A stretch of DNA of 7,327 nt from positions 1-7,327 of the IMG/VR virus record IMGVR_UViG_2778261418_000025, one strand, 5' to 3'. Position 1 is the first letter of the stretch. Each line of letters opens with the position of its first letter. Shown here in pieces: positions 1 through 7,327 of this stretch. Below the pieces are notes generated by a model, which saw only the letters and a program-made list of their open reading frames with translations, had not been told where the DNA came from and made no database searches. The position numbers and the translations under genes are program-made. The stretch comes from a virus. Its lineage: Duplodnaviria > Heunggongvirae > Uroviricota > Caudoviricetes.

Positions 1-333
1 TTACTGGCAGGCTTTTTGTCCAATGTAGTATGCAATTGAGCGGTCAACTATAGGGGCCATATTTGGATCTGGTGCTGAGTTATTCATCTGCTCGATGGTC
101 TCACCGTCTCCAAGATATTTAACTGTCCCGGCAGTACAGTCGTACAGCCGCTTTGAATATGATGTTCCAGACGGCCCCTTTCTTTCAGTTGTTATAGTAG
201 CCATGCTGCCGTCGCGAGTCTTATCTAAAATCGTGTAACTAGCCTTCGTATCTGTTGGCACATAAACAACCTCAGCCGCAAACACATTAAATGAAACTGC
301 TGCCCCTACAGCTAATATAATGAAATTTTTCAT
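1..333 (-). CDS. Small secreted protein of unknown function (about 110 aa precursor with N-terminal signal peptide); cargo/moron candidate downstream of tfa
   Basis: ATG at 333..331 with AGGA about 8 nt upstream; the track ORF 1..393 starts at TTG (393) and is probably over-extended. Product begins MKNFIILAVGAAVSFNVFAAEVV (basic residue, hydrophobic core, AxA-like site, no lipobox Cys). Two Cys in the mature part. Stop codon at 1..3. Region looks AT-richer than the rest by eye. Confidence 0.55.
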   Translation of the reverse strand: MKNFIILAVGAAVSFNVFAAEVVYVPTDTKASYTILDKTRDGSMATITTERKGPSGTSYSKRLYDCTAGTVKYLGDGETIEQMNNSAPDPNMAPIVDRSIAYYIGQKACQ

Positions 334-370: not shown

Positions 371-925
371 TCAAGGAACTGAGAAAACGACAAAACCCGC
401 GTTTTGCGGGCTGTCTGGAATGGTCAGGCAATGATGTTCTGGTACTTGCTCCGGGTCTGCCATGTCTAAATCAACGGCATCCTGCAATGTGGCAATGGCG
501 TCATTGGCCTGTTTAAGCAGGCTTTTCTTTTCGGCGTCTGCCTCGCTGACTAATACAATTCGCATGGCCTCCGCATCATCCACCCACGCCTTACCATTCC
601 ATTTTTGCCAGGCATTAGCCGGTGCTAACGTGGTTGTCCCTTCCGGGTAAACACCTGGCTCGGTGATCACCAGTTCATTACCGTTTTCTGTATCAAACAC
701 CACCTCACCACGATGATCCTCACGGGAAATCCATCTTTGCTTCTCTGAATCAAAAATTGCCACAAACCCCACTTTGATTACCGGTGGTTTTATTGTTGTG
801 CAGTTGGCTGGCAGTCCAGTATGCGCAGGAATAAAAGCATCACCTGAACCAATAAATTCATTCGTGTCGGAACGCAGGTTATAAACAGTAACTGTTTGAT
901 CGGTTTCACTCATTTTAAAAGTCAT
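371..925 (-). CDS. tfa: Tail fibre assembly protein (Tfa chaperone), 184 aa
   Basis: ATG at 925..923. N-terminus [48 protein letters not shown] closely matches the lambda Tfa N-terminus as I recall it (MAFRMSE...[20 protein letters not shown]). Its ATG overlaps the stop of the upstream fibre ORF (TAATG). Confidence 0.85.
   Translation of the reverse strand: MTFKMSETDQTVTVYNLRSDTNEFIGSGDAFIPAHTGLPANCTTIKPPVIKVGFVAIFDSEKQRWISREDHRGEVVFDTENGNELVITEPGVYPEGTTTLAPANAWQKWNGKAWVDDAEAMRIVLVSEADAEKKSLLKQANDAIATLQDAVDLDMADPEQVPEHHCLTIPDSPQNAGFVVFSVP
381..410 (-). terminator. Possible weak intrinsic terminator inside the last codons of tfa
   Basis: On the minus strand: CCCGC-AAAAC-GCGGG hairpin (plus 396-410) followed by TTTTGTCGTTTTCTC. 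Stem is only 5 bp and the element lies within coding sequence. Confidence 0.25.
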
Positions 926-1404
926 TATGCGAGTCTCACTATGTAGTTAAATGCAATATTCTTAACGGTCGTTTCTGCGTTGCCCGACGCGGCGATGGTA
1001 ATGGTGTGACTGTGTGCGCCAATGGCTACGGTATGAGAGTGAGCGCCAATACCTACGGTGTGATTATGTGCGCCAATGCCAACCGTATGGGCATGTGCCC
1101 CAGTAGACGATGTTGTTGCGGTTCCAACCGTAAACCCCGTAGCCCCCGCAGCGTTGTTTCCATCACCTTTTTCTTCATTAAGTACAGGCAGCGTATGTGC
1201 ATGCGCCCCCGTTGTATTTGTCGTTTTCGTGCCATAGTCAAATGTGCTCGCCGTTTTAGTACCGTAATCAAATGAGGATGTTGATTTCGTCCCCAAATCG
1301 GTACTGGATGCACTGGCTGTGTGTGAGTGGGATTTATTGCCATCATCTTCATAGGACAAAACTTCGCGGCCGTCTGGTTTCCCTTTGATTGTCCGGCGGC
1401 GCAT
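925..1404 (-). CDS. stf: Side tail fibre protein, C-terminal (receptor-binding tip) fragment, 5'-truncated; about 159 codons from an in-frame ATG
   Basis: C-terminus ...[58 protein letters not shown] with repeated GAHxH units and duplicated FDYGTK, typical of lambda Stf / P2 H / T4 gp37-type fibre tips. Far too short for a full fibre. The track ORF 925..1599 extends upstream only by running out of frame over the gpA 3' end. In-frame ATG at 1404..1402 sits 1 nt after the gpA stop (TGAcATG). Confidence 0.7.
1000..1110. repeat. 27-bp imperfect tandem repeats (about 4 units) encoding 9-aa HTVGIGAHx repeats
   Basis: Units beginning near 1014, 1041, 1068 and 1095 (gtgcgccaat.../gagcgccaat.../gtgcgccaat.../gtgcccc) on the + strand, matching the His-x-His protein repeats of the fibre tip. 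Confidence 0.7.
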
Positions 1405-1405
1405 G

Positions 1406-2542
1406 TCAGGAATAACACCCGACGGATACGCGATGGCCAGTAAAGGATATGCGCTGCACGTCCTCTGCATACTCGTTGCCCTGTTCCGTAATTTCATAGG
1501 CCAGACGAACAACCAGATCACGGCGGGCAACCAGTGCACCGCCCTGCGCCTGGGTATATGCAGCCCAGTCCCCGACATCAGCAGCGGCCAGAACCGCATC
1601 CATTCTGCGATCGGTCAGCACCTGATCCCGCAACCGACGCAGCTCACGCCAGACAGTTACCGGCGCACCACCAATCTGCTGAAACTGACGAATACGCCAG
1701 CGTGAAGCCCATGCAGAAACGGACTTAGCCATATCACGCAGGTTTTCGCCGGTTTCTTCGTCATGCTCACCATCCAGCGCAAAACCATCAATATTTTTTG
1801 AAATGTATTTCGCGATGTAGCCCGTGGCCGAACCTTTGGCGGGATCGATAGCTTCAACATGAAAACGCGCCTTCAGCGCCTTTTCAGATTGCAGTTCTTC
1901 AGAATCGGTAATTCTGGCGTGATAGCAAAGAATATCGCGTACCGTGTCCACGTCATGCGGACGCATAAAAAGCAACATATGCCAGTGCGGTGTCCCGTCA
2001 TGGTGAGGCTCAACAACCCGAAACCCAAATACATGAATACCCGCACGCGAGATCGCTGCGCGTGCTTTTGCCCATACGCCGCATAAATAGCGCTGGGTAT
2101 CCTGCGGCGTACATCCATCCCATTGCGATACAAAGCCACCTTTGCTGTGCACTGCGTGGAAACGTGATGGCGCGGTGATGGTGTAAAACTCACCGGCCAG
2201 CCCTTCTTCATTGGCCATATCTTCAAACCCTCGCATTCTTACCATTAGTTCACATCGACGGATCGCCGGATTTGCAACGCTGCGGTGCACCATGCTGTCC
2301 AGTGCAATGCGCAGCCCCTCATCATTCAGCAGATCAAACTTTTTAAAGAACTCCAGATTCCGCTTTTTCTGGTCTATCCATTCGTCCAGTGTTTTGCGGG
2401 ATACATAAGCGCTGGCCGCTTTTTGTACCTGTCCCACCGCGATGGCCATATGTTCGCGCTGCATATCACGCGCACGTTTAAGACGTAGGTACCACCATTC
2501 CGGCGCCATCATGCGCAGTATCCCGGATTCCGCCTTACGCAT
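1406..2542 (-). CDS. A: Rolling-circle replication initiator gpA (P2 A family HUH endonuclease), internal fragment lacking expected N- and C-terminal regions
   Basis: Contains [17 protein letters not shown] (HUH-type metal site) and [13 protein letters not shown] (paired catalytic Tyr), hallmarks of P2 gpA / phiX174 A-type initiators. At 378 aa it is about half the length I recall for P2 A. The frame is open only 15 codons upstream of the ATG at 2542 (stop at 2588-2590), and the ORF ends by abutting the fibre fragment. Confidence 0.75.
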
Positions 2543-3204
2543 TTCCAGTTGACCTTCATTGGCCTCATGTTCAGCCCAGTACCGCGCTCATGGTAAGCGG
2601 TGAAATTGTCGCTTTCAGTCAGATAAGGCGGATCACAGTAAACAACGTCATTCCCGTCCCGAACCAAATCGAGCGTTTCTGAATAGTGGGCAGTAATGAA
2701 CGTTGCGCGTTTCGCTTTTTCAGCAAAGGCACGGATTTCATCAGCGGGAAAATAAGGCTTTTTGTACTTACCGAACGGGACGTTGAACTGGCCTCGGCGA
2801 TTATACCGGCACAGGCCATTGAAGCAGTGGCGATTCAGGTACAGGAAACGCGCAGCATTTTCAACAGATTCAGAACCGGCCTTACCACCAGAAAGATTGA
2901 AAGCATCACGCACTGCGTAATAGAAAATGGCACGGCTTTCTTCATCACCTAACGAACCGGCAGTAAACAGGATCTCCAGCTCATTCAGCAGCGCATCAGT
3001 GTGATACGCCATCGCCTTATAAAGATTAACCAGATCAGGATTCACATCTGCGATCAGATACTCGTCATAATCCGTATTCATCATGACAGCGCAGGAACCT
3101 GCGAACGGTTCAACCAGGCGTTTACCTTCTGGAAGGTGCGGACGCAGCATAGGCATAATGCGGGCTTTGCTGCCCACCCATTTAAGCGGAGTTTTTATTG
3201 CCAT
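2509..3204 (-). CDS. dam: DNA adenine methyltransferase (Dam family), 3'-disrupted: native sequence to about 2588, then about 25 out-of-frame codons
   Basis: ATG at 3204..3202 with AAGG upstream; the track ORF starts at TTG 3225. Product MAIKTPLKWVGSKARIM...LVEPFAGSCAVMMNTDY...LYLNRHCFNGLCRYNRRGQFNVPFGKYKKPYFPADE...VVYCDPPYLTESDNFTAYHE parallels E. coli Dam through the DPPY motif. The following tail ([25 protein letters not shown]) uses rare codons (AGG, CGG, GGA) and ends where E. coli Dam would continue about 70 aa. Confidence 0.8.
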   Translation of the reverse strand: MAIKTPLKWVGSKARIMPMLRPHLPEGKRLVEPFAGSCAVMMNTDYDEYLIADVNPDLVNLYKAMAYHTDALLNELEILFTAGSLGDEESRAIFYYAVRDAFNLSGGKAGSESVENAARFLYLNRHCFNGLCRYNRRGQFNVPFGKYKKPYFPADEIRAFAEKAKRATFITAHYSETLDLVRDGNDVVYCDPPYLTESDNFTAYHERGTGLNMRPMKVNWKCVRRNPGYCA

Positions 3205-3428
3205 GCCGCACCGCCTTTGCTGCAAATCGCCGCGGCTTCTTCGCGGATCAACTCAACGATTTCCGTTGCGCTTAAACCTTCATTGGCTGCATGGGTGGCC
3301 AGCTTATTCAGACGGGTGGAACACAAATCAGCAGCAGCGGCTTTACCTTCCTGCGTGGCTTTGGTGAGCATTGCCAGCAGGTCAGTGACTGATTTTGTTG
3401 CGGGTAAATCCTGACGTGTCATATGCAT
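3195..3428 (-). CDS. Hypothetical Ala-rich 77-aa protein, translationally coupled to dam
   Basis: ATG at 3428 with AAGGA 7 nt upstream. Its stop overlaps the dam start by 10 nt (ATGGCAATAA). No recognisable motif. Confidence 0.5.
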   Translation of the reverse strand: MHMTRQDLPATKSVTDLLAMLTKATQEGKAAAADLCSTRLNKLATHAANEGLSATEIVELIREEAAAICSKGGAAWQ

Positions 3429-3495
3429 TTTGGTTTCCTTAAGGCAAAAGAATCCCCGGCCACTTGAAACATGGCCAAAAAATTCAGGCGGTTAA

Positions 3496-3897
3496 TTAGT
3501 GAAAAGTGGGGTGTACTGTGGCAGCTGAGTAGTTCGGTACCGGAATCAGGTGCAGTTCATAGGTTGTCCGCCACCACTCCTGGATCAGTGCATTTATCTC
3601 GCCAACTCCCAGCGCCCCGGCTGTATAGAAAATCGCACGAATCCCCGCCAGCGCTTCTATCTGGGCTTCTTTGCTTTCCGCTTCGCGATACACGCAGCAC
3701 CAGAAAGCGGCATTGATCGCCAGCCAGTGACGCGGATTCGTCATGTGCTCGGTGTCATTGAAGAAGAACGGATGCAAAGCGATGCGGCCATTTTTACTGG
3801 TGCTTTTCTCTGTAAACACTACAGCGTAGTTATGCGGGACACCCCACACAGCCAGTTCAGCCCCCAACGATTTACCCTCAACGGAAATAATGGTCAT
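3496..3897 (-). CDS. Hypothetical early-operon protein, 133 aa
   Basis: ATG at 3897..3895 overlaps the stop of the upstream ORF (TAATG). Coding-like codon usage. No recognisable motif. Confidence 0.55.
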   Translation of the reverse strand: MTIISVEGKSLGAELAVWGVPHNYAVVFTEKSTSKNGRIALHPFFFNDTEHMTNPRHWLAINAAFWCCVYREAESKEAQIEALAGIRAIFYTAGALGVGEINALIQEWWRTTYELHLIPVPNYSAATVHPTFH

Positions 3898-4325
3898 TAG
3901 TGATTCCCCTGTTGCTGGAACTTATGGACGATATGAGGTGCAATCACCATCTGTACCCCACTACTGCTATAAATTGGATGTGCCTTTTTGATCGGGCGGT
4001 TCGCGGTGCGCTTTGAAAAATCGCTGTCACGTAAACTGCCGAAACCTTCAAACGTTAACCGCGCCCGTGAAATGCCCTGGCGCAGTTGAATCATGTCCCG
4101 ATAGCCCAGGCGTTCATAAATCTCACGCCAGCAACATTTGCTTAAGTGGGCTTTAAATGCCCCGGAACCAGAAGTAACCGCAGCAGCATGAAGCACCACG
4201 CCGCGCCACTCCGGTGTTAAGTTGTCCCACCATTCAGCGGCCTCGCTGCTTTCGTTGAAGTATTTGCGGCGGATCTGTTTTAAATGCTCCAGCCCGCGCT
4301 TTTGCTGTTCCTGGCTAATCGCCAT
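3897..4325 (-). CDS. Hypothetical early-operon protein, about 142 aa from ATG 4325 (track gives 207 aa from a GTG at 4520)
   Basis: ATG at 4325..4323 preceded by GGGGG 4 nt upstream. The 65 codons upstream in the same frame contain several rare codons (AGG, AGA x2, ATA, GGG) and overlap a better-looking 57-aa ORF in another frame, so the long GTG-initiated model is probably an over-extension. Confidence 0.5.
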   Translation of the reverse strand: MAISQEQQKRGLEHLKQIRRKYFNESSEAAEWWDNLTPEWRGVVLHAAAVTSGSGAFKAHLSKCCWREIYERLGYRDMIQLRQGISRARLTFEGFGSLRDSDFSKRTANRPIKKAHPIYSSSGVQMVIAPHIVHKFQQQGNH

Positions 4326-4333
4326 AACGCCCC

Positions 4334-4507
4334 CTATAGTCCCATCAGACGACGCCACCACGGGCGGCGCGGCTGCTGGCCATTGAATTTGTACATGTGG
4401 CCAGGGTTCCAGCGCTGACCGTTTGGCAGTTCTATCCAGCCCGTTGAACCACTCGGCAACTGCATGGCTGGTGATTCTTTTTTCAGGTAAGTGACAAACG
4501 CTTTCAT
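4334..4507 (-). CDS. Small hypothetical protein, 57 aa (MKAFVTYLKKESPAMQLPSGSTGWIELPNGQRWNPGHMYKFNGQQPRRPWWRRLMGL), not in the supplied ORF track
   Basis: ATG at 4507..4505 with GAGGGA 6 nt upstream, 9 nt after the cII stop. Codon usage is typical (CTG, CCG, CGC, CGT, CAG, GGC). Stop TAG at 4336..4334 overlaps the SD of the next gene. Confidence 0.5.
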   Translation of the reverse strand: MKAFVTYLKKESPAMQLPSGSTGWIELPNGQRWNPGHMYKFNGQQPRRPWWRRLMGL

Positions 4508-4516
4508 GGTGTTCCC

Positions 4517-5020
4517 TCACATCAGGCCGGTGGCGTTGGTTGTGACCAGCTCCACCGCCGCAGCCAGAACAGGCGCAGAGTGAATACGGCTTTCAACGGT
4601 ATAAGCCAGCACGGATAAGCTACGGATTGCATCGCGGGCACGATCCAGAATTTGAGTACGGCGGGCGGCAGTCATATAGCCAGTTGATACGGCTTCCCCA
4701 GCAATCGCGCCCACACTGGCTGTGGCACTCAGTGCGCACAACTGCATGTTGCCTTCTGTGGCATTGTTCACCGGCACGGATGGAAGGCAGTTAATCTGAC
4801 CTAACATCCCATCAAGCAAACGCGCATCTTCGGTGTAATCCGTGATAGCCAAAAGCTCATCACAGGTCAGGCGGTGCGGTTGTGCTGGGTTCAGTTTGTT
4901 GCGCAGGATCTGCGGCCTCATACCAACGGCAGCGGCCACATCTTCAAGATTGTGCTCAATTGCAAATGCTCGGCAAGCCGCATCAAAGTGCGCATGTTTA
5001 GAGGTCTGGTAATCAAACAT
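4517..5020 (-). CDS. cII: CII-like transcriptional activator of lysogeny (phage 186 CII family), 167 aa
   Basis: MFDYQTSKHAHFDAACRAFAIEHN...GMRPQILRNKLNPAQPHRLTCDELLAITDYTEDARLLDGMLGQINCLP matches my recollection of 186 CII (MFDFQVSKHPHYDEACRAFA...GMRPQVLRNKLNPEQPH...). ATG at 5020 with GGGAGAGG 6 nt upstream. Confidence 0.8.
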   Translation of the reverse strand: MFDYQTSKHAHFDAACRAFAIEHNLEDVAAAVGMRPQILRNKLNPAQPHRLTCDELLAITDYTEDARLLDGMLGQINCLPSVPVNNATEGNMQLCALSATASVGAIAGEAVSTGYMTAARRTQILDRARDAIRSLSVLAYTVESRIHSAPVLAAAVELVTTNATGLM

Positions 5021-5050
5021 TGTTTGCCTCTCCCGAATCCGTAGGATGGA

Positions 5051-5272
5051 TTACGCGTTAAGCGAAATGTCACATTCGCTTAAAGCCTGAATAGTGAGCG
5101 CGGCCATGTTGACTTCGACCAAGCCTTTCTTCTGCTTACCCTTCGGCTTAATAGGTAATTTCCCGTATTCGATCAGGTTCCTGGCGGTTTCTTTGTTGGT
5201 ACCAGTACGGCGGCAATACTCGTCTAAAGGCAGGTATGGCTCAGGGATGATGATTGTAATGTTCGGACGCAT
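5051..5272 (-). CDS. apl: Apl/Cox-like small DNA-binding protein (excision directionality and lytic-switch regulator), 73 aa from ATG 5272
   Basis: First gene of the leftward operon facing cI, the position of 186 apl / P2 cox. Small and basic (MRPNITIIIPEPYLPLDEYCRRTGTNKETARNLIEYGKLPIKPKGKQKKGLVEV...). ATG 5272 has GGAG 8 nt upstream; the track start at 5305 is a TTG. Assignment is by synteny and size, not recognised sequence. Confidence 0.5.
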   Translation of the reverse strand: MRPNITIIIPEPYLPLDEYCRRTGTNKETARNLIEYGKLPIKPKGKQKKGLVEVNMAALTIQALSECDISLNA

Positions 5273-5343
5273 GAGGCAAACTCCACAAGTTAACCTGTAC
5301 GGCAATACAGGGTTATATAAGGCAACATTCGAAATATGGAGCC

Positions 5344-5372
5344 AGATTAATTCGCGTTTCGAGAAGTGTCAA
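5344..5372 (-). promoter_or_regulatory. Candidate lytic promoter (pR-like) for the apl-cII operon
   Basis: Minus strand: -35 TTGACA (plus 5372..5367), 17-bp spacer, -10 TAATCT (plus 5349..5344), about 65 nt upstream of the apl ATG. The -10 is a weak match, so the exact hexamer is uncertain. Confidence 0.45.
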
Positions 5373-5393
5373 TTTTAATTTCTCGAATCGAGA
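5357..5393. promoter_or_regulatory. Candidate operator: inverted repeats bracketing the -35 element
   Basis: TTCGAGAA (5358-5365) and its exact reverse complement TTCTCGAA (5380-5387) flank the -35, with a second palindrome TCTCGA-a-TCGAGA at 5381-5393. Three TCGAGA-type hexamers lie within 36 bp. Confidence 0.4.
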
Positions 5394-5407
5394 CTTATGG
5401 ATTCGCT

Positions 5408-5989
5408 ATGAGCACATTTAAAATCGACCTAAACGTAGATAGCACACCGATTCTTGACAGGGTGATCGAGGCTTACGGATTTACGCAGAAGTTACAGCTC
5501 GCGGAACATCTGGACATGGCAGCCAGTTCTCTTTCTTCACGCTACAAGCGTGGAGTTTTCCCGGCAGACATTGTCGTGAAATGTGTAGCCGAAACAGGCG
5601 CTAATCTGGAGTGGCTGGCGACAGGACAGGGACGTAAATTTAATGATGATGAATTAGACATACTCAAAATACCGCGCAGCAAGATTGTTGATGGCCAACT
5701 CTATGACGCTGGCACACTTATGCTTGATAAAGTCATCTTCCTGCCTGGTAAGCCCTTACCGCAACAACCGATTTGTGTTCTGGATGGCCTTGTTCAGTAC
5801 ATTGTTGACCAGTCTTATTCTGAAGTTTATGACGATGATTGGTTGGTTGAAGTTGAAGGAAAAACAAGCGTCCGCACTCTTACACGGATTCCGGTACGAA
5901 AAGTCAGAGTTAGCGGTGTTGGTATGGCATTTGATTGCGGAATTGACGACATAAAAATCATAGGCCGCGTTGTTCTGACGATAAAATAA
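5408..5989 (+). CDS. cI: CI-like immunity repressor (phage 186 CI family), 193 aa from ATG 5408
   Basis: MSTFKIDLNVDSTPILDRVIEAYGFTQKLQLAEHLDMAASSLSSRYKRGVFPADIVVKCVAETGANLEWLATGQG matches my recollection of 186 CI (VLDRICEAYGFSQKIQLANHFDIASSSLSNRYTRG...ETGANLQWLLTGEG). C-terminus ...FDCGIDDIKIIGRVV also parallels 186 CI. The track start at 5366 is a GTG with no SD. Confidence 0.85.
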   Translation: MSTFKIDLNVDSTPILDRVIEAYGFTQKLQLAEHLDMAASSLSSRYKRGVFPADIVVKCVAETGANLEWLATGQGRKFNDDELDILKIPRSKIVDGQLYDAGTLMLDKVIFLPGKPLPQQPICVLDGLVQYIVDQSYSEVYDDDWLVEVEGKTSVRTLTRIPVRKVRVSGVGMAFDCGIDDIKIIGRVVLTIK

Positions 5990-5990
5990 A

Positions 5991-7031
5991 ATGAGCGTTC
6001 GTAAACTTCCTACAGGCGAATGGATCGCCGACTTCTACACCGTCAACCGCAGTAATGGCAAGAACGGGAAGCGTATACGTAAAAAATTTGCCACGAAAGG
6101 GGAAGCCCTGGCATTCGAAAACCATACGCTTCAGAAAGTAGACGCAGCTCCGTGGCTGGGTGAAGGGAAGGACAAGCGAACTTTAATAGATCTGATAACA
6201 ATGTGGTATGAACGCCACGGCGTAGCTTTGAGCAATGGCGAAAAGCGTAAAAATGCTATGACCTGGGCGGCGGAATGCATGGGATTCCCGCTGGCCACAG
6301 AATTTAATGCCCAGTTGTTCACAGCCTACCGCGCTAAAAGGCTGGATGGGCATTATGCCCGTACCAACAGAGTATCTAAGGTTTCCCCGAAAACTATGAA
6401 CCTTGAACATGCTTACTTCCTGGCTATGTTCAACGAGCTGAAACGGATTGGTGAATGGTCAGCACCCAACCCACTAGAAAACGTCAGACAGTATCGTACT
6501 GATGAAACCGAAATGGCTTTCCTCACTACCGAAGAAATTGATCGGCTTTTACTGGAATGCAAACGAAGTAAAGTTAAGTACCTAGAATTAGTTGTCAAAA
6601 TCTGCCTTGCTACCGGCGCAAGGTGGAATGAGGCGGCAACGCTGAAAAGCTCCCAGATCGCCGGGGGTAAAGTCACGTTCGTCAAAACCAAAGGGAAGCG
6701 CAACAGAACAATTCCCCTTGATGATGAACTTCTGTCCGAATTACCTGAAACAAAAGGCGCTCTGTTCCCCAAGCCCTGCTACAACGCTTTCCGCTCTGCT
6801 CTGGAACGTGCAGGCATTGAACTCCCCTCCGGCCAGCTTACCCATGTACTGCGCCATACATTTGCCAGCCACTTTATGATGAACGGCGGAAACATTCTGG
6901 TTCTGCAAAAAATTCTCGGCCACGCTGACATCACTATGACAATGCGTTATGCCCATTTCGCCCCAAGCCACCTTGAAGATGCCGTGCGACTTAACCCCTT
7001 AAAATGTCGCAAAAATGTCGCGACAGCTTAG
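5991..7031 (+). CDS. int: Tyrosine site-specific integrase (P2/186 Int family), 346 aa
   Basis: N-terminus MSVRKLPTGEWIADFYTVNRSNGKNGKRIRKKF resembles P2 Int (MAIKKLDDGRYEVDIRPTGRNGKRIRRKF, recalled). Catalytic motifs present: TGARWNEA, HVLRHTFASHF, LGHADITMTMRYAHF. ATG lies 1 nt after the cI stop (TAAaATG). Confidence 0.9.
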   Translation: MSVRKLPTGEWIADFYTVNRSNGKNGKRIRKKFATKGEALAFENHTLQKVDAAPWLGEGKDKRTLIDLITMWYERHGVALSNGEKRKNAMTWAAECMGFPLATEFNAQLFTAYRAKRLDGHYARTNRVSKVSPKTMNLEHAYFLAMFNELKRIGEWSAPNPLENVRQYRTDETEMAFLTTEEIDRLLLECKRSKVKYLELVVKICLATGARWNEAATLKSSQIAGGKVTFVKTKGKRNRTIPLDDELLSELPETKGALFPKPCYNAFRSALERAGIELPSGQLTHVLRHTFASHFMMNGGNILVLQKILGHADITMTMRYAHFAPSHLEDAVRLNPLKCRKNVATA

Positions 7032-7198
7032 AAATACTGCCGAATACTCACAGATATTAACTAACGTAACTTATTGATAACACTGTAAGTTATTGTTTTT
7101 CGTAGATAGTTGATGCTTTATAATATAGCCTGTGCTATATCTGTATGTAATGCAATCATCCCTCAAGGATCGACGGGATTAGCAAGTCAGGAGGTCTT
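7032..7198. other. AT-rich att-proximal region downstream of int (probable prophage end / Int arm-site region); core not identified
   Basis: Immediately 3' of int, where P2-like phages carry attP. Visibly AT-rich with short direct repeats (AATACT at 7033 and 7043; TTATTG at 7071 and 7090) and a TATAAT at 7119-7124. No tRNA-like sequence recognised. Confidence 0.35.
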
Positions 7199-7327
7199 AT
7201 GAATGAGTTCAAGAGGTGTATGCGCGTGTTTAGTCATTCTCCCTTTAAAGTACGGTTAATGCTGCTCTCTATGTTGTGCGATATGGTCAACAACAAACCG
7301 CAGCAAGATAAACCTTCCGATAAATAG
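7199..7327 (+). CDS. Small ORF, 42 aa (MNEFKRCMRVFSHSPFKVRLMLLSMLCDMVNNKPQQDKPSDK), unknown function
   Basis: Consensus SD AGGAGG (7189-7194) 4 nt before the ATG at 7199; stop TAG at 7325-7327. Too short to appear in the ORF track. May lie outside the prophage. Confidence 0.4.
   Translation: MNEFKRCMRVFSHSPFKVRLMLLSMLCDMVNNKPQQDKPSDK

Follow-up and report, generated by a model that had tools for sequence, protein, structure and literature searches.

Defective (cryptic) prophages decay by deletion in enterobacterial genomes. The locus described here resembles such elements in that the integrase and the repressor have been kept while replication, lysis, and structural genes have been lost, and in that sister genomes carry nested, successive deletions. 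It differs from them in two respects, namely in the presence of many independent deletions with essentially no point substitutions, and in a strong bias toward the dinucleotide TA at the deletion joints. Two genes are at the centre of this study, dam, which encodes a D12-class N6-adenine methyltransferase, and gene A, which encodes a P2/186-type replication endonuclease (gpA); both are present as remnants, which are designated dam′ and gpA′. The described counterpart of the first product is E. coli Dam (PDB 2g1p), with which Dam′ shares the N-terminal motif, the FxGxG motif, the DNA-recognition domain, and the DPPY motif, whereas the C-terminal third of the fold is absent from Dam′. The second corresponds to the gene A protein of phage P2; both belong to the Phage_GPA Pfam family and have the HUH and YxxxY motifs, but gpA′ comprises only residues 183-560, and the replication origin (ori) of the prophage is deleted. 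In P2, ori is a nick site located inside gene A, at position 29892 of the record (PMC8537503; NC_001895 annotation). Among deposited phages, the closest is Escherichia phage ESSI2_ev040 (Peduoviridae, Quadragintavirus, NC_049393.1), with about 96% identity over the dam-A region. An early operon with the order cox-like, cII, fil, two hypothetical genes, DUF2732, dam, and A is common to our locus, to the intact prophage described below, and to ESSI2_ev040, although in the last of these DUF2732 is separated from dam by two additional genes, for an exonuclease and for DUF3850.

We identify the window, that is, the whole stretch of 7,327 nucleotides that was analysed, with high confidence as a decayed P2/186-like (Peduoviridae) prophage in which a single 780-bp deletion, here called D1, cut off the 3′ end of dam together with the 5′ end of gene A. 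The prophage lies between mntS and mntR in a clone of E. coli. A megablast search against complete E. coli genomes showed that the same mntS-mntR site is occupied by an intact prophage in E. coli CM2010-0578/1 (NZ_CP087564.1, about 4851.7-4880 kb), which was used as the intact reference (L003) and in whose numbering the deletion coordinates are given. Outside the gaps, this prophage and the window are 100% identical at the nucleotide level, the sole exception being one mismatch within the D1 microhomology. A blastn comparison of the window with the reference locus yielded four collinear blocks with 99.9-100% identity. The first aligns window positions 2581-7327 with reference positions 6348-1602 (100%), the second aligns window positions 1448-2586 with reference positions 8261-7123 (one mismatch, at window position 2583, inside the microhomology), and the third and fourth comprise window positions 458-1452 and 1-459, respectively (both 100%). 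The gaps between the blocks measure 780, 16,571, and 3,021 bp, and all of them are internal to the intact copy. A collinear and otherwise identical intact copy therefore exists, as is characteristic of a deletion scar.

The part of the window adjoining the left chromosomal border, which is formed by the host gene mntS (7199..7327, plus strand), has been preserved. It contains the genes for the integrase (5991-7031) and the CI repressor (5408-5989), both intact and on the plus strand. On the minus strand are encoded a cox/apl-like protein of 73 aa (5051-5272), CII (4517-5020), Fil (4334-4507), a 142-aa protein (3897-4325), a 133-aa protein (3496-3897), and DUF2732 (3195-3428), all of them intact and 100% identical to L003; these genes were assigned by annotation and Pfam. 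All phage genes near the dam/gpA joint are on the minus strand. At the right end of the prophage, a 110-aa gene with a signal-peptide-like N-terminus (1..333, minus strand) is intact as well; roughly 2,500 blocks of the assembly collection carry this gene. A repeat search for an att core gave none.

In the reference prophage, dam (861 bp, 286 aa) and gene A (2022 bp, 673 aa) overlap by 4 bp (ATGA). At the D1 joint (window 2581-2586), blocks 1 and 2 abut, whereas their ends in the reference lie 780 bp apart, and exactly these 780 bp (L003 6349-7128), spanning the dam/A boundary, are absent from the window. D1 removes residues 209-286 of Dam and residues 1-182 of gpA. An earlier note, made from this DNA by itself, had placed the truncation of both genes at one breakpoint, with loss of the N-terminal region of gpA and with the gpA frame opening at that same point, next to a stop at 2588-2590; the comparison with the intact copy bears out all of this, the N-terminal loss amounting to 182 residues. 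The same note had suggested looking for a short repeat at the breakpoint. There is one, yet it measures merely 2 bp as an exact match (window 2581-2582, AC on the plus strand and GT on the coding strand), and extends to five of six positions as an imperfect one (CGC[G/C]GT on the coding strand). The sites that were joined read CCG-TA-CTGG on the gpA side and CGG-TT-TTCG on the dam side. The length of 780 bp is divisible by three, but since dam and A are in different frames, as their ATGA overlap shows, the Dam reading frame is out of phase once it passes into gpA DNA. The 780-bp deletion, joined at the 2-bp (5/6 imperfect) microhomology, thus eliminated the last 78 codons of dam and the first 182 codons of gene A; the Dam frame crosses 23 out-of-frame gpA codons before reaching a stop, and the gpA frame opens at the joint without a start codon of its own.

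The remnant of dam begins with an ATG at window position 3204 on the minus strand, ends with a stop at 2509-2511, and encodes 231 aa; the 238-aa Dam-like ORF in the ORF list (2509-3225) is counted from an upstream TTG at 3225. Its native part (2581..3204, minus strand, 100% identical to L003 5725-6348) comprises codons 1-208 of 286, and its tail (2509..2580, minus strand) consists of 23 codons and the stop, which are gpA DNA read in the wrong frame. Accordingly, Dam′ matches the intact Dam of NZ_CP087564.1 (286 aa) without any difference through residue 208 (...DPPYLTESDNFTAYHERG) and continues with 23 foreign residues. The loss of Dam homology after DPPY, with 25 residues following '...AYHE', had been recognised before; these 25 residues are a native R and G plus the 23 foreign ones. 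The C-terminal truncation that had been described likewise stands, while its size, given then as about 70 residues, has to be corrected to 78.

In Dam′, DPPY and the AdoMet motif are still present, and the DNA-recognition domain is complete. The motifs EPFAGS (AdoMet motif I, FxGxG-type, residues 32-37) and DPPY (residues 191-194, window 2623-2634) are invariant in an alignment of 37 homologues, and the 231-aa ORF matches PF02086 with E=2.6e-56 and 191.6 bits (cut-off 22). The match, however, covers positions 1-203 of the 253 positions of the profile in Dam′ versus 1-251 in intact Dam, and the catalytic domain is incomplete in that profile positions 204-253 are missing. Alignment with E. coli Dam (2g1p) extends over residues 8-267 for the intact protein (E=1e-59) and breaks off at about residue 200 for Dam′, which spans 8-200. 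An AF2 model was built of a 286-aa homologue (37 aligned sequences, mean pLDDT 84.5), in which seven β-strands are predicted (29-32, 48-53, 167-171, 186-190, 231-236, 249-256, and 268-275). Projected onto this model, the segment lost from Dam′ comprises helix 211-226 together with strands five to seven. Several residues that are nearly invariant among the 37 homologues are lost with it (L217, L221, L224, S234, N235, R257, and S258). A Rossmann-type methyltransferase core from which three of seven strands are missing would very probably neither fold nor methylate DNA.

The remnant of gene A (1448..2582, minus strand, 100% identical to L003) holds codons 183-560 of 673, and its homology to gpA begins at residue 183 (YWAEHEANEG...); gpA′ consists of residues 183-560 followed by 13 foreign residues. 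Upstream, the frame is closed by the TGA at 2588-2590, and its first methionine is M196 (ATG at 2540-2542), from which the 378-aa gpA-like ORF of the ORF list (1406-2542) extends. The HUH motif (HWHMLLF) and the tyrosine motif (GYIAKYISK) are kept, and PF05840 is matched with E=1e-101. Coverage of this profile is 61-320 of 321 positions for gpA′ versus 3-320 for intact gpA. The window contains no full-length gpA with its own start: residues 1-182 and 561-673 and profile positions 3-60 are missing, and so is the original ribosome-binding site. The ATG of M196 overlaps the end of dam′ by 34 nt and has a weak GAAGG 10 nt upstream, and a truncated gpA′ protein could be made through coupling if the operon were derepressed. 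A search of PDB sequences with intact gpA gave no structural match at E≤1. In the alignment with gene A of the intact prophage, the P2 nick site (29892) falls at about codons 598-609, with 27 of 30 nt conserved. The second deletion of the window begins after gpA codon 560, and the ori segment is therefore missing; indeed, no cognate ori and no 14-mer of the 75-nt ori region was found in the window. The C-terminal loss of 113 gpA residues by this second deletion does not appear in the earlier note.

The second deletion (D2, joint at window 1448..1452) lacks 16,571 bp (L003 8262-24827) and carries the microhomology GCATA on the phage strand. The missing segment extends from gpA codon 561 through ogr and the portal, terminase, capsid, lysis, and tail genes into the tail-fibre gene, and includes the homologue of the ori nick site. 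A 3′ fragment of the tail-fibre gene (925..1452, minus strand, 159-aa ORF at 925-1404) is left, 100% identical to L003 24828-25355. In the third deletion (D3, joint at window 458-459), 3,021 bp are missing (L003 25823-28841) and the microhomology is CA. D3 cuts the tail-fibre assembly gene (458..925, minus strand) after about 156 codons, its ORF continuing to 371, and leaves the last 36 nt (424-459) of an upstream 566-aa gene. Short homology is thus present at all three joints, that of D1 being exact over 2 bp. The haplotype of the window is D1 + D2 + D3, and no genomes with only one or two of these deletions were seen.

When further proteins of the window were used as queries, the same prophage was met in many other states of decay. 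Additional deletions that keep the dam/A joint were found in the variants L012 (662 bp, cII-fil) and L013 (from cII into dam′, the 5′ half of which is gone). D1 is also kept in L005 and L006, which have lost everything from early gpA′ to the right end, and it has been erased in L014 by a deletion reaching from cox into gpA′. In L016, gpA is intact and the capsid-to-fibre region is lost, and other large deletions were found in L019, L022, L025, L027, L032, and L034. Look-ups with the cox-like protein and with CI returned solely intact relatives or variants that were already known. D1 is common to every genome of the sub-lineage of the window that retains the dam/A area, so it cannot be younger than the later, nested deletions. 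Between the deleted variants and the strain with the intact prophage, the host flanks differ by 0-1 SNP in about 6 kb, and these genomes therefore form one clone. Where the intact prophage is carried by other lineages, 9-31 SNPs were counted over single host flanks (1.6-4.4 kb).

One alternative concerns only the formation of D1. Instead of by random slippage or microhomology joining, D1 and most of the other deletions might have been made by a site-preferring break-and-join process centred on TA, with a 2-nt register and a GG-TA-CC-like preference. The evidence comes from a set of 19 distinct prophage-internal deletion joints in assemblies of one E. coli clone. TA is the rarest dinucleotide of the prophage (4.0%), and it lies inside the exact microhomology at 10 of these 19 joints, versus 0.57 expected (P≈1e-11, conditional on the observed microhomology lengths); the microhomologies in question are TA itself, six times, and GGTA, GCATA, TTA, and TAC. 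Under a looser reading, a 2-nt register in which one site is TA and the other departs from it by no more than one mismatch, 16 of 18 joints conform, versus 3.9 expected (P≈2e-9). D1 is among them, with TA on its gpA side and TT on its dam side. GG-TA half-sites make up 28% of the TA sites used and 9.3% of the background (P=1.4e-4), and G directly precedes TA in 25 of 50 half-sites (50%) versus 27% in the background. These half-sites belong to 25 used TA sites, out of 1,136 in the whole prophage. Moreover, 3 of the 13 GGTACC sites in the prophage served as endpoints, and two positions (reference 24828-24832 and 27328-27333) were reused by independent deletions. We found no description of such a TA joint bias in the literature.

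Several points speak against this process. The exact microhomology of D1 is only GT, which makes D1 a 'one-ended' case. The pattern was noticed on roughly the first 10 joints, and the later nine replicate it in part, four of them having TA in the microhomology. The flanks also fail to match a known enzyme class closely. Cleavage by type IIA topoisomerases is determined by -4G/+8C, -2A/+6T, and -1T/+5A (PMC10117906), and quinolone-trapped type IIA topoisomerases cleave before G, with G at +1 and C at +4 (PMC6379681). At the TA joints, only G before and C after are enriched, a preference that recalls the quinolone-trapped enzymes. The equivalents of positions -1 and -2, however, favour G where T and A would be called for, and that of -4 favours no base in place of G, so that gyrase or Topo IV would fit these joints only partly. 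A process of this kind is a tenable but tentative explanation for D1, which we rate as somewhat short of probable. The more specific proposal, according to which the dam/gpA joint is one product of a TA-centred break-and-join activity (2-nt register, GG-TA-CC-like preference) in a single clone, where many independent deletions are dismantling the prophage and point mutations are essentially absent, appears rather doubtful.

Other candidate makers of the deletions were rejected. Rpn nucleases were considered for the TA joints and have no sequence specificity (PMC5350276). A simple GTAC- or GGTACC-specific restriction enzyme was discarded, as no deletion joins two such sites, and so was nicking by gpA, as no endpoint is located at ori. 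When the TA joints were inspected by eye, resemblances to Chi and to Xer/dif were also seen.

By whichever route the ends were joined, the dam/gpA scar is ordinary prophage decay. Judged from their sequences, Dam′ and gpA′ are both very probably dead, in keeping with the earlier note, which had taken both to be probably inactive. Since gpA is truncated at both ends and ori is deleted, the remnant lacks an origin as well as a complete initiator; from the window the head and lysis genes are also gone entirely, as are most of the tail genes, and the remnant would be unable to replicate or to form phage. With CI being intact, the early operon is presumably still repressed, and in the repressed state dam′ and gpA′ would not be transcribed from the early promoter. 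One could imagine that the truncated products have been retained in a new role, with Dam′ perhaps binding GATC or acting as a regulator and gpA′ perhaps serving as a free HUH nuclease, given that motifs are recognisable in both fragments and that the allele has spread within the clone. This is highly improbable, however, because sister genomes have deleted most or all of gpA′ (L005, L006, and L014) or the 5′ half of dam′ (L013), which is the pattern of neutral decay, and because Dam′ would be left with an incomplete core in the model and the operon is under an intact CI repressor.

A further reading, in which the short forms are natural and the 780 bp are an insertion in other genomes, found no support beyond the fact that some intact relatives (L051; H32/H33) have no dam, which makes dam an accessory gene in this phage family. 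Those intact relatives inspected that carry dam encode a Dam of 286-289 aa and, behind it, a gpA of 665-682 aa; in some of them a 70-aa ORF lies between the two. Among the best 120 homologue clusters of Dam′, 112 have a length of 267-322 aa, and the other eight have 143-258 aa, four of these being labelled partial; the 23-residue tail is absent from all 120, with no alignment beyond about 92% of the 231-aa query. None of these clusters provides an intact homologue ending at the breakpoint, which is the observation that the earlier note had named as speaking against a truncation. Furthermore, the 780 bp complete both Pfam domains and restore the full-length alignment to E. coli Dam. The comparison of domain coverage thus refutes natural short forms, which retain next to no probability, and the full Pfam coverage of the intact proteins, the full-length alignment with E. 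coli Dam, and the lengths of the homologues together establish that the window is the derived, deleted state.

The D1 joint was not found in 5,426 complete RefSeq E. coli genomes (megablast; split matches only), nor in an exact 40-nt scan of the GTDB species representatives, which carries little weight with one genome per species. The allele was located by an exact-protein look-up, in which the 231-aa Dam′ is listed for 33 blocks of public assemblies. At least 24 contigs from independent projects encode it; they come from NCBI assemblies, one of which is the complete genome CP057725.1, and from several Logan SRA/ENA runs, so that the chance of the joint being an assembly or sequencing artefact is negligible. 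The entire window of 7,327 bases is present with 100% identity in CP057725.1 (a complete E. coli chromosome), in GCA_017597905.1, and in a contig of SRR31141082.

Our results indicate that the dam′ and gpA′ ORFs are pseudogene fragments of a dead prophage and represent neither a short Dam nor a novel initiator, and their presence is no ground for attributing an additional active GATC methylase to a strain. The sole surprising element, the TA bias of the joints, lies outside the dam/gpA finding proper and may point to a specific, testable deletion mechanism. Within one E. coli clone, the prophage is intact in some isolates and exists in more than 10 differently deleted states in others, which provides a natural time series of prophage decay.

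Two further deletions were identified in the window. The D2 joint (window 1448-1452, microhomology GCATA) marks the loss of 16,571 bp reaching from gpA codon 561 into the tail-fibre gene, and the D3 joint (window 458-459, microhomology CA) marks the loss of 3,021 bp reaching from the tail-fibre assembly gene to near the end of a 566-aa gene. The gene for the replication initiator, gpA, is thus cut at both ends. The intact reference prophage L003 has, at 8373-8410 (gpA codons about 598-609), a sequence homologous to the nick site of the P2 ori, with 27 of 30 nt conserved. This sequence is absent from the window; it was taken out by D2, so that a prophage remnant without an origin is left.

Deletion joints were compared in L003 coordinates, using the joints at window 2581-2586 and 1448-1452 together with those of the related loci L004-L034. 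Joints in the mntS-mntR prophage are strongly biased towards TA, which lies within the microhomology of 10 of the 19 (0.57 expected, P≈1e-11). A TA-centred 2-nt register, that is, TA at one joint site and at most one mismatch at the other, is fitted by 16 of 18 joints, against 3.9 expected. Sites resembling GG-TA-CC are preferred, 3 of the 13 GGTACC sites in the prophage having been used by deletions, and there are two deletion hot spots with two uses each.

The position occupied by dam is accessory and varies in gene content. In some intact relatives at the mntS site (L051, CM132655.1; and the genome matches H32 and H33), gene A follows directly after DUF2732 without dam, and other relatives have additional exonuclease/DUF3850 genes, or a 70-aa ORF between dam and A. 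A 322-aa protein encoded on a 2.6-kb Logan contig (P0004) matches the Dam remnant at 100% identity across 84% of the query; it may derive from a further allele of this dam gene produced by fusion or deletion.

The prophage carries at its right end a gene for a 110-aa protein whose N-terminus resembles a signal peptide (window 1-333, minus strand). This gene is indexed in 2,528 collection blocks, and a hexapeptide-repeat serine acetyltransferase is encoded immediately outside the window, downstream (L003 29919-30614). Almost every decayed variant still has both genes, which are possible cargo genes. Elsewhere, the 207-aa ORF called from a GTG (window 3897-4520, minus strand) is over-extended, judged by the annotated intact prophage, which has a 142-aa gene (3897-4325) and fil (57 aa, 4334-4507), both on the minus strand.

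In L025 (GCA_045069395.1), the prophage fragment runs from holin to tail chaperone, followed by the right end. Genes of the sbcB/dacD region replace mntS on one flank, which suggests a chromosomal rearrangement with one endpoint within the prophage.

Within one E. coli clone, whose host flank differs by 0-1 SNP over about 6 kb, the prophage is intact in some isolates and occurs in more than ten different deleted states in others (L005, L006, L012, L013, L014, L016, L019, L022, L025, L027, L032 and L034), with almost no point substitutions. The intact and deleted states of this clone are a natural prophage-decay series.
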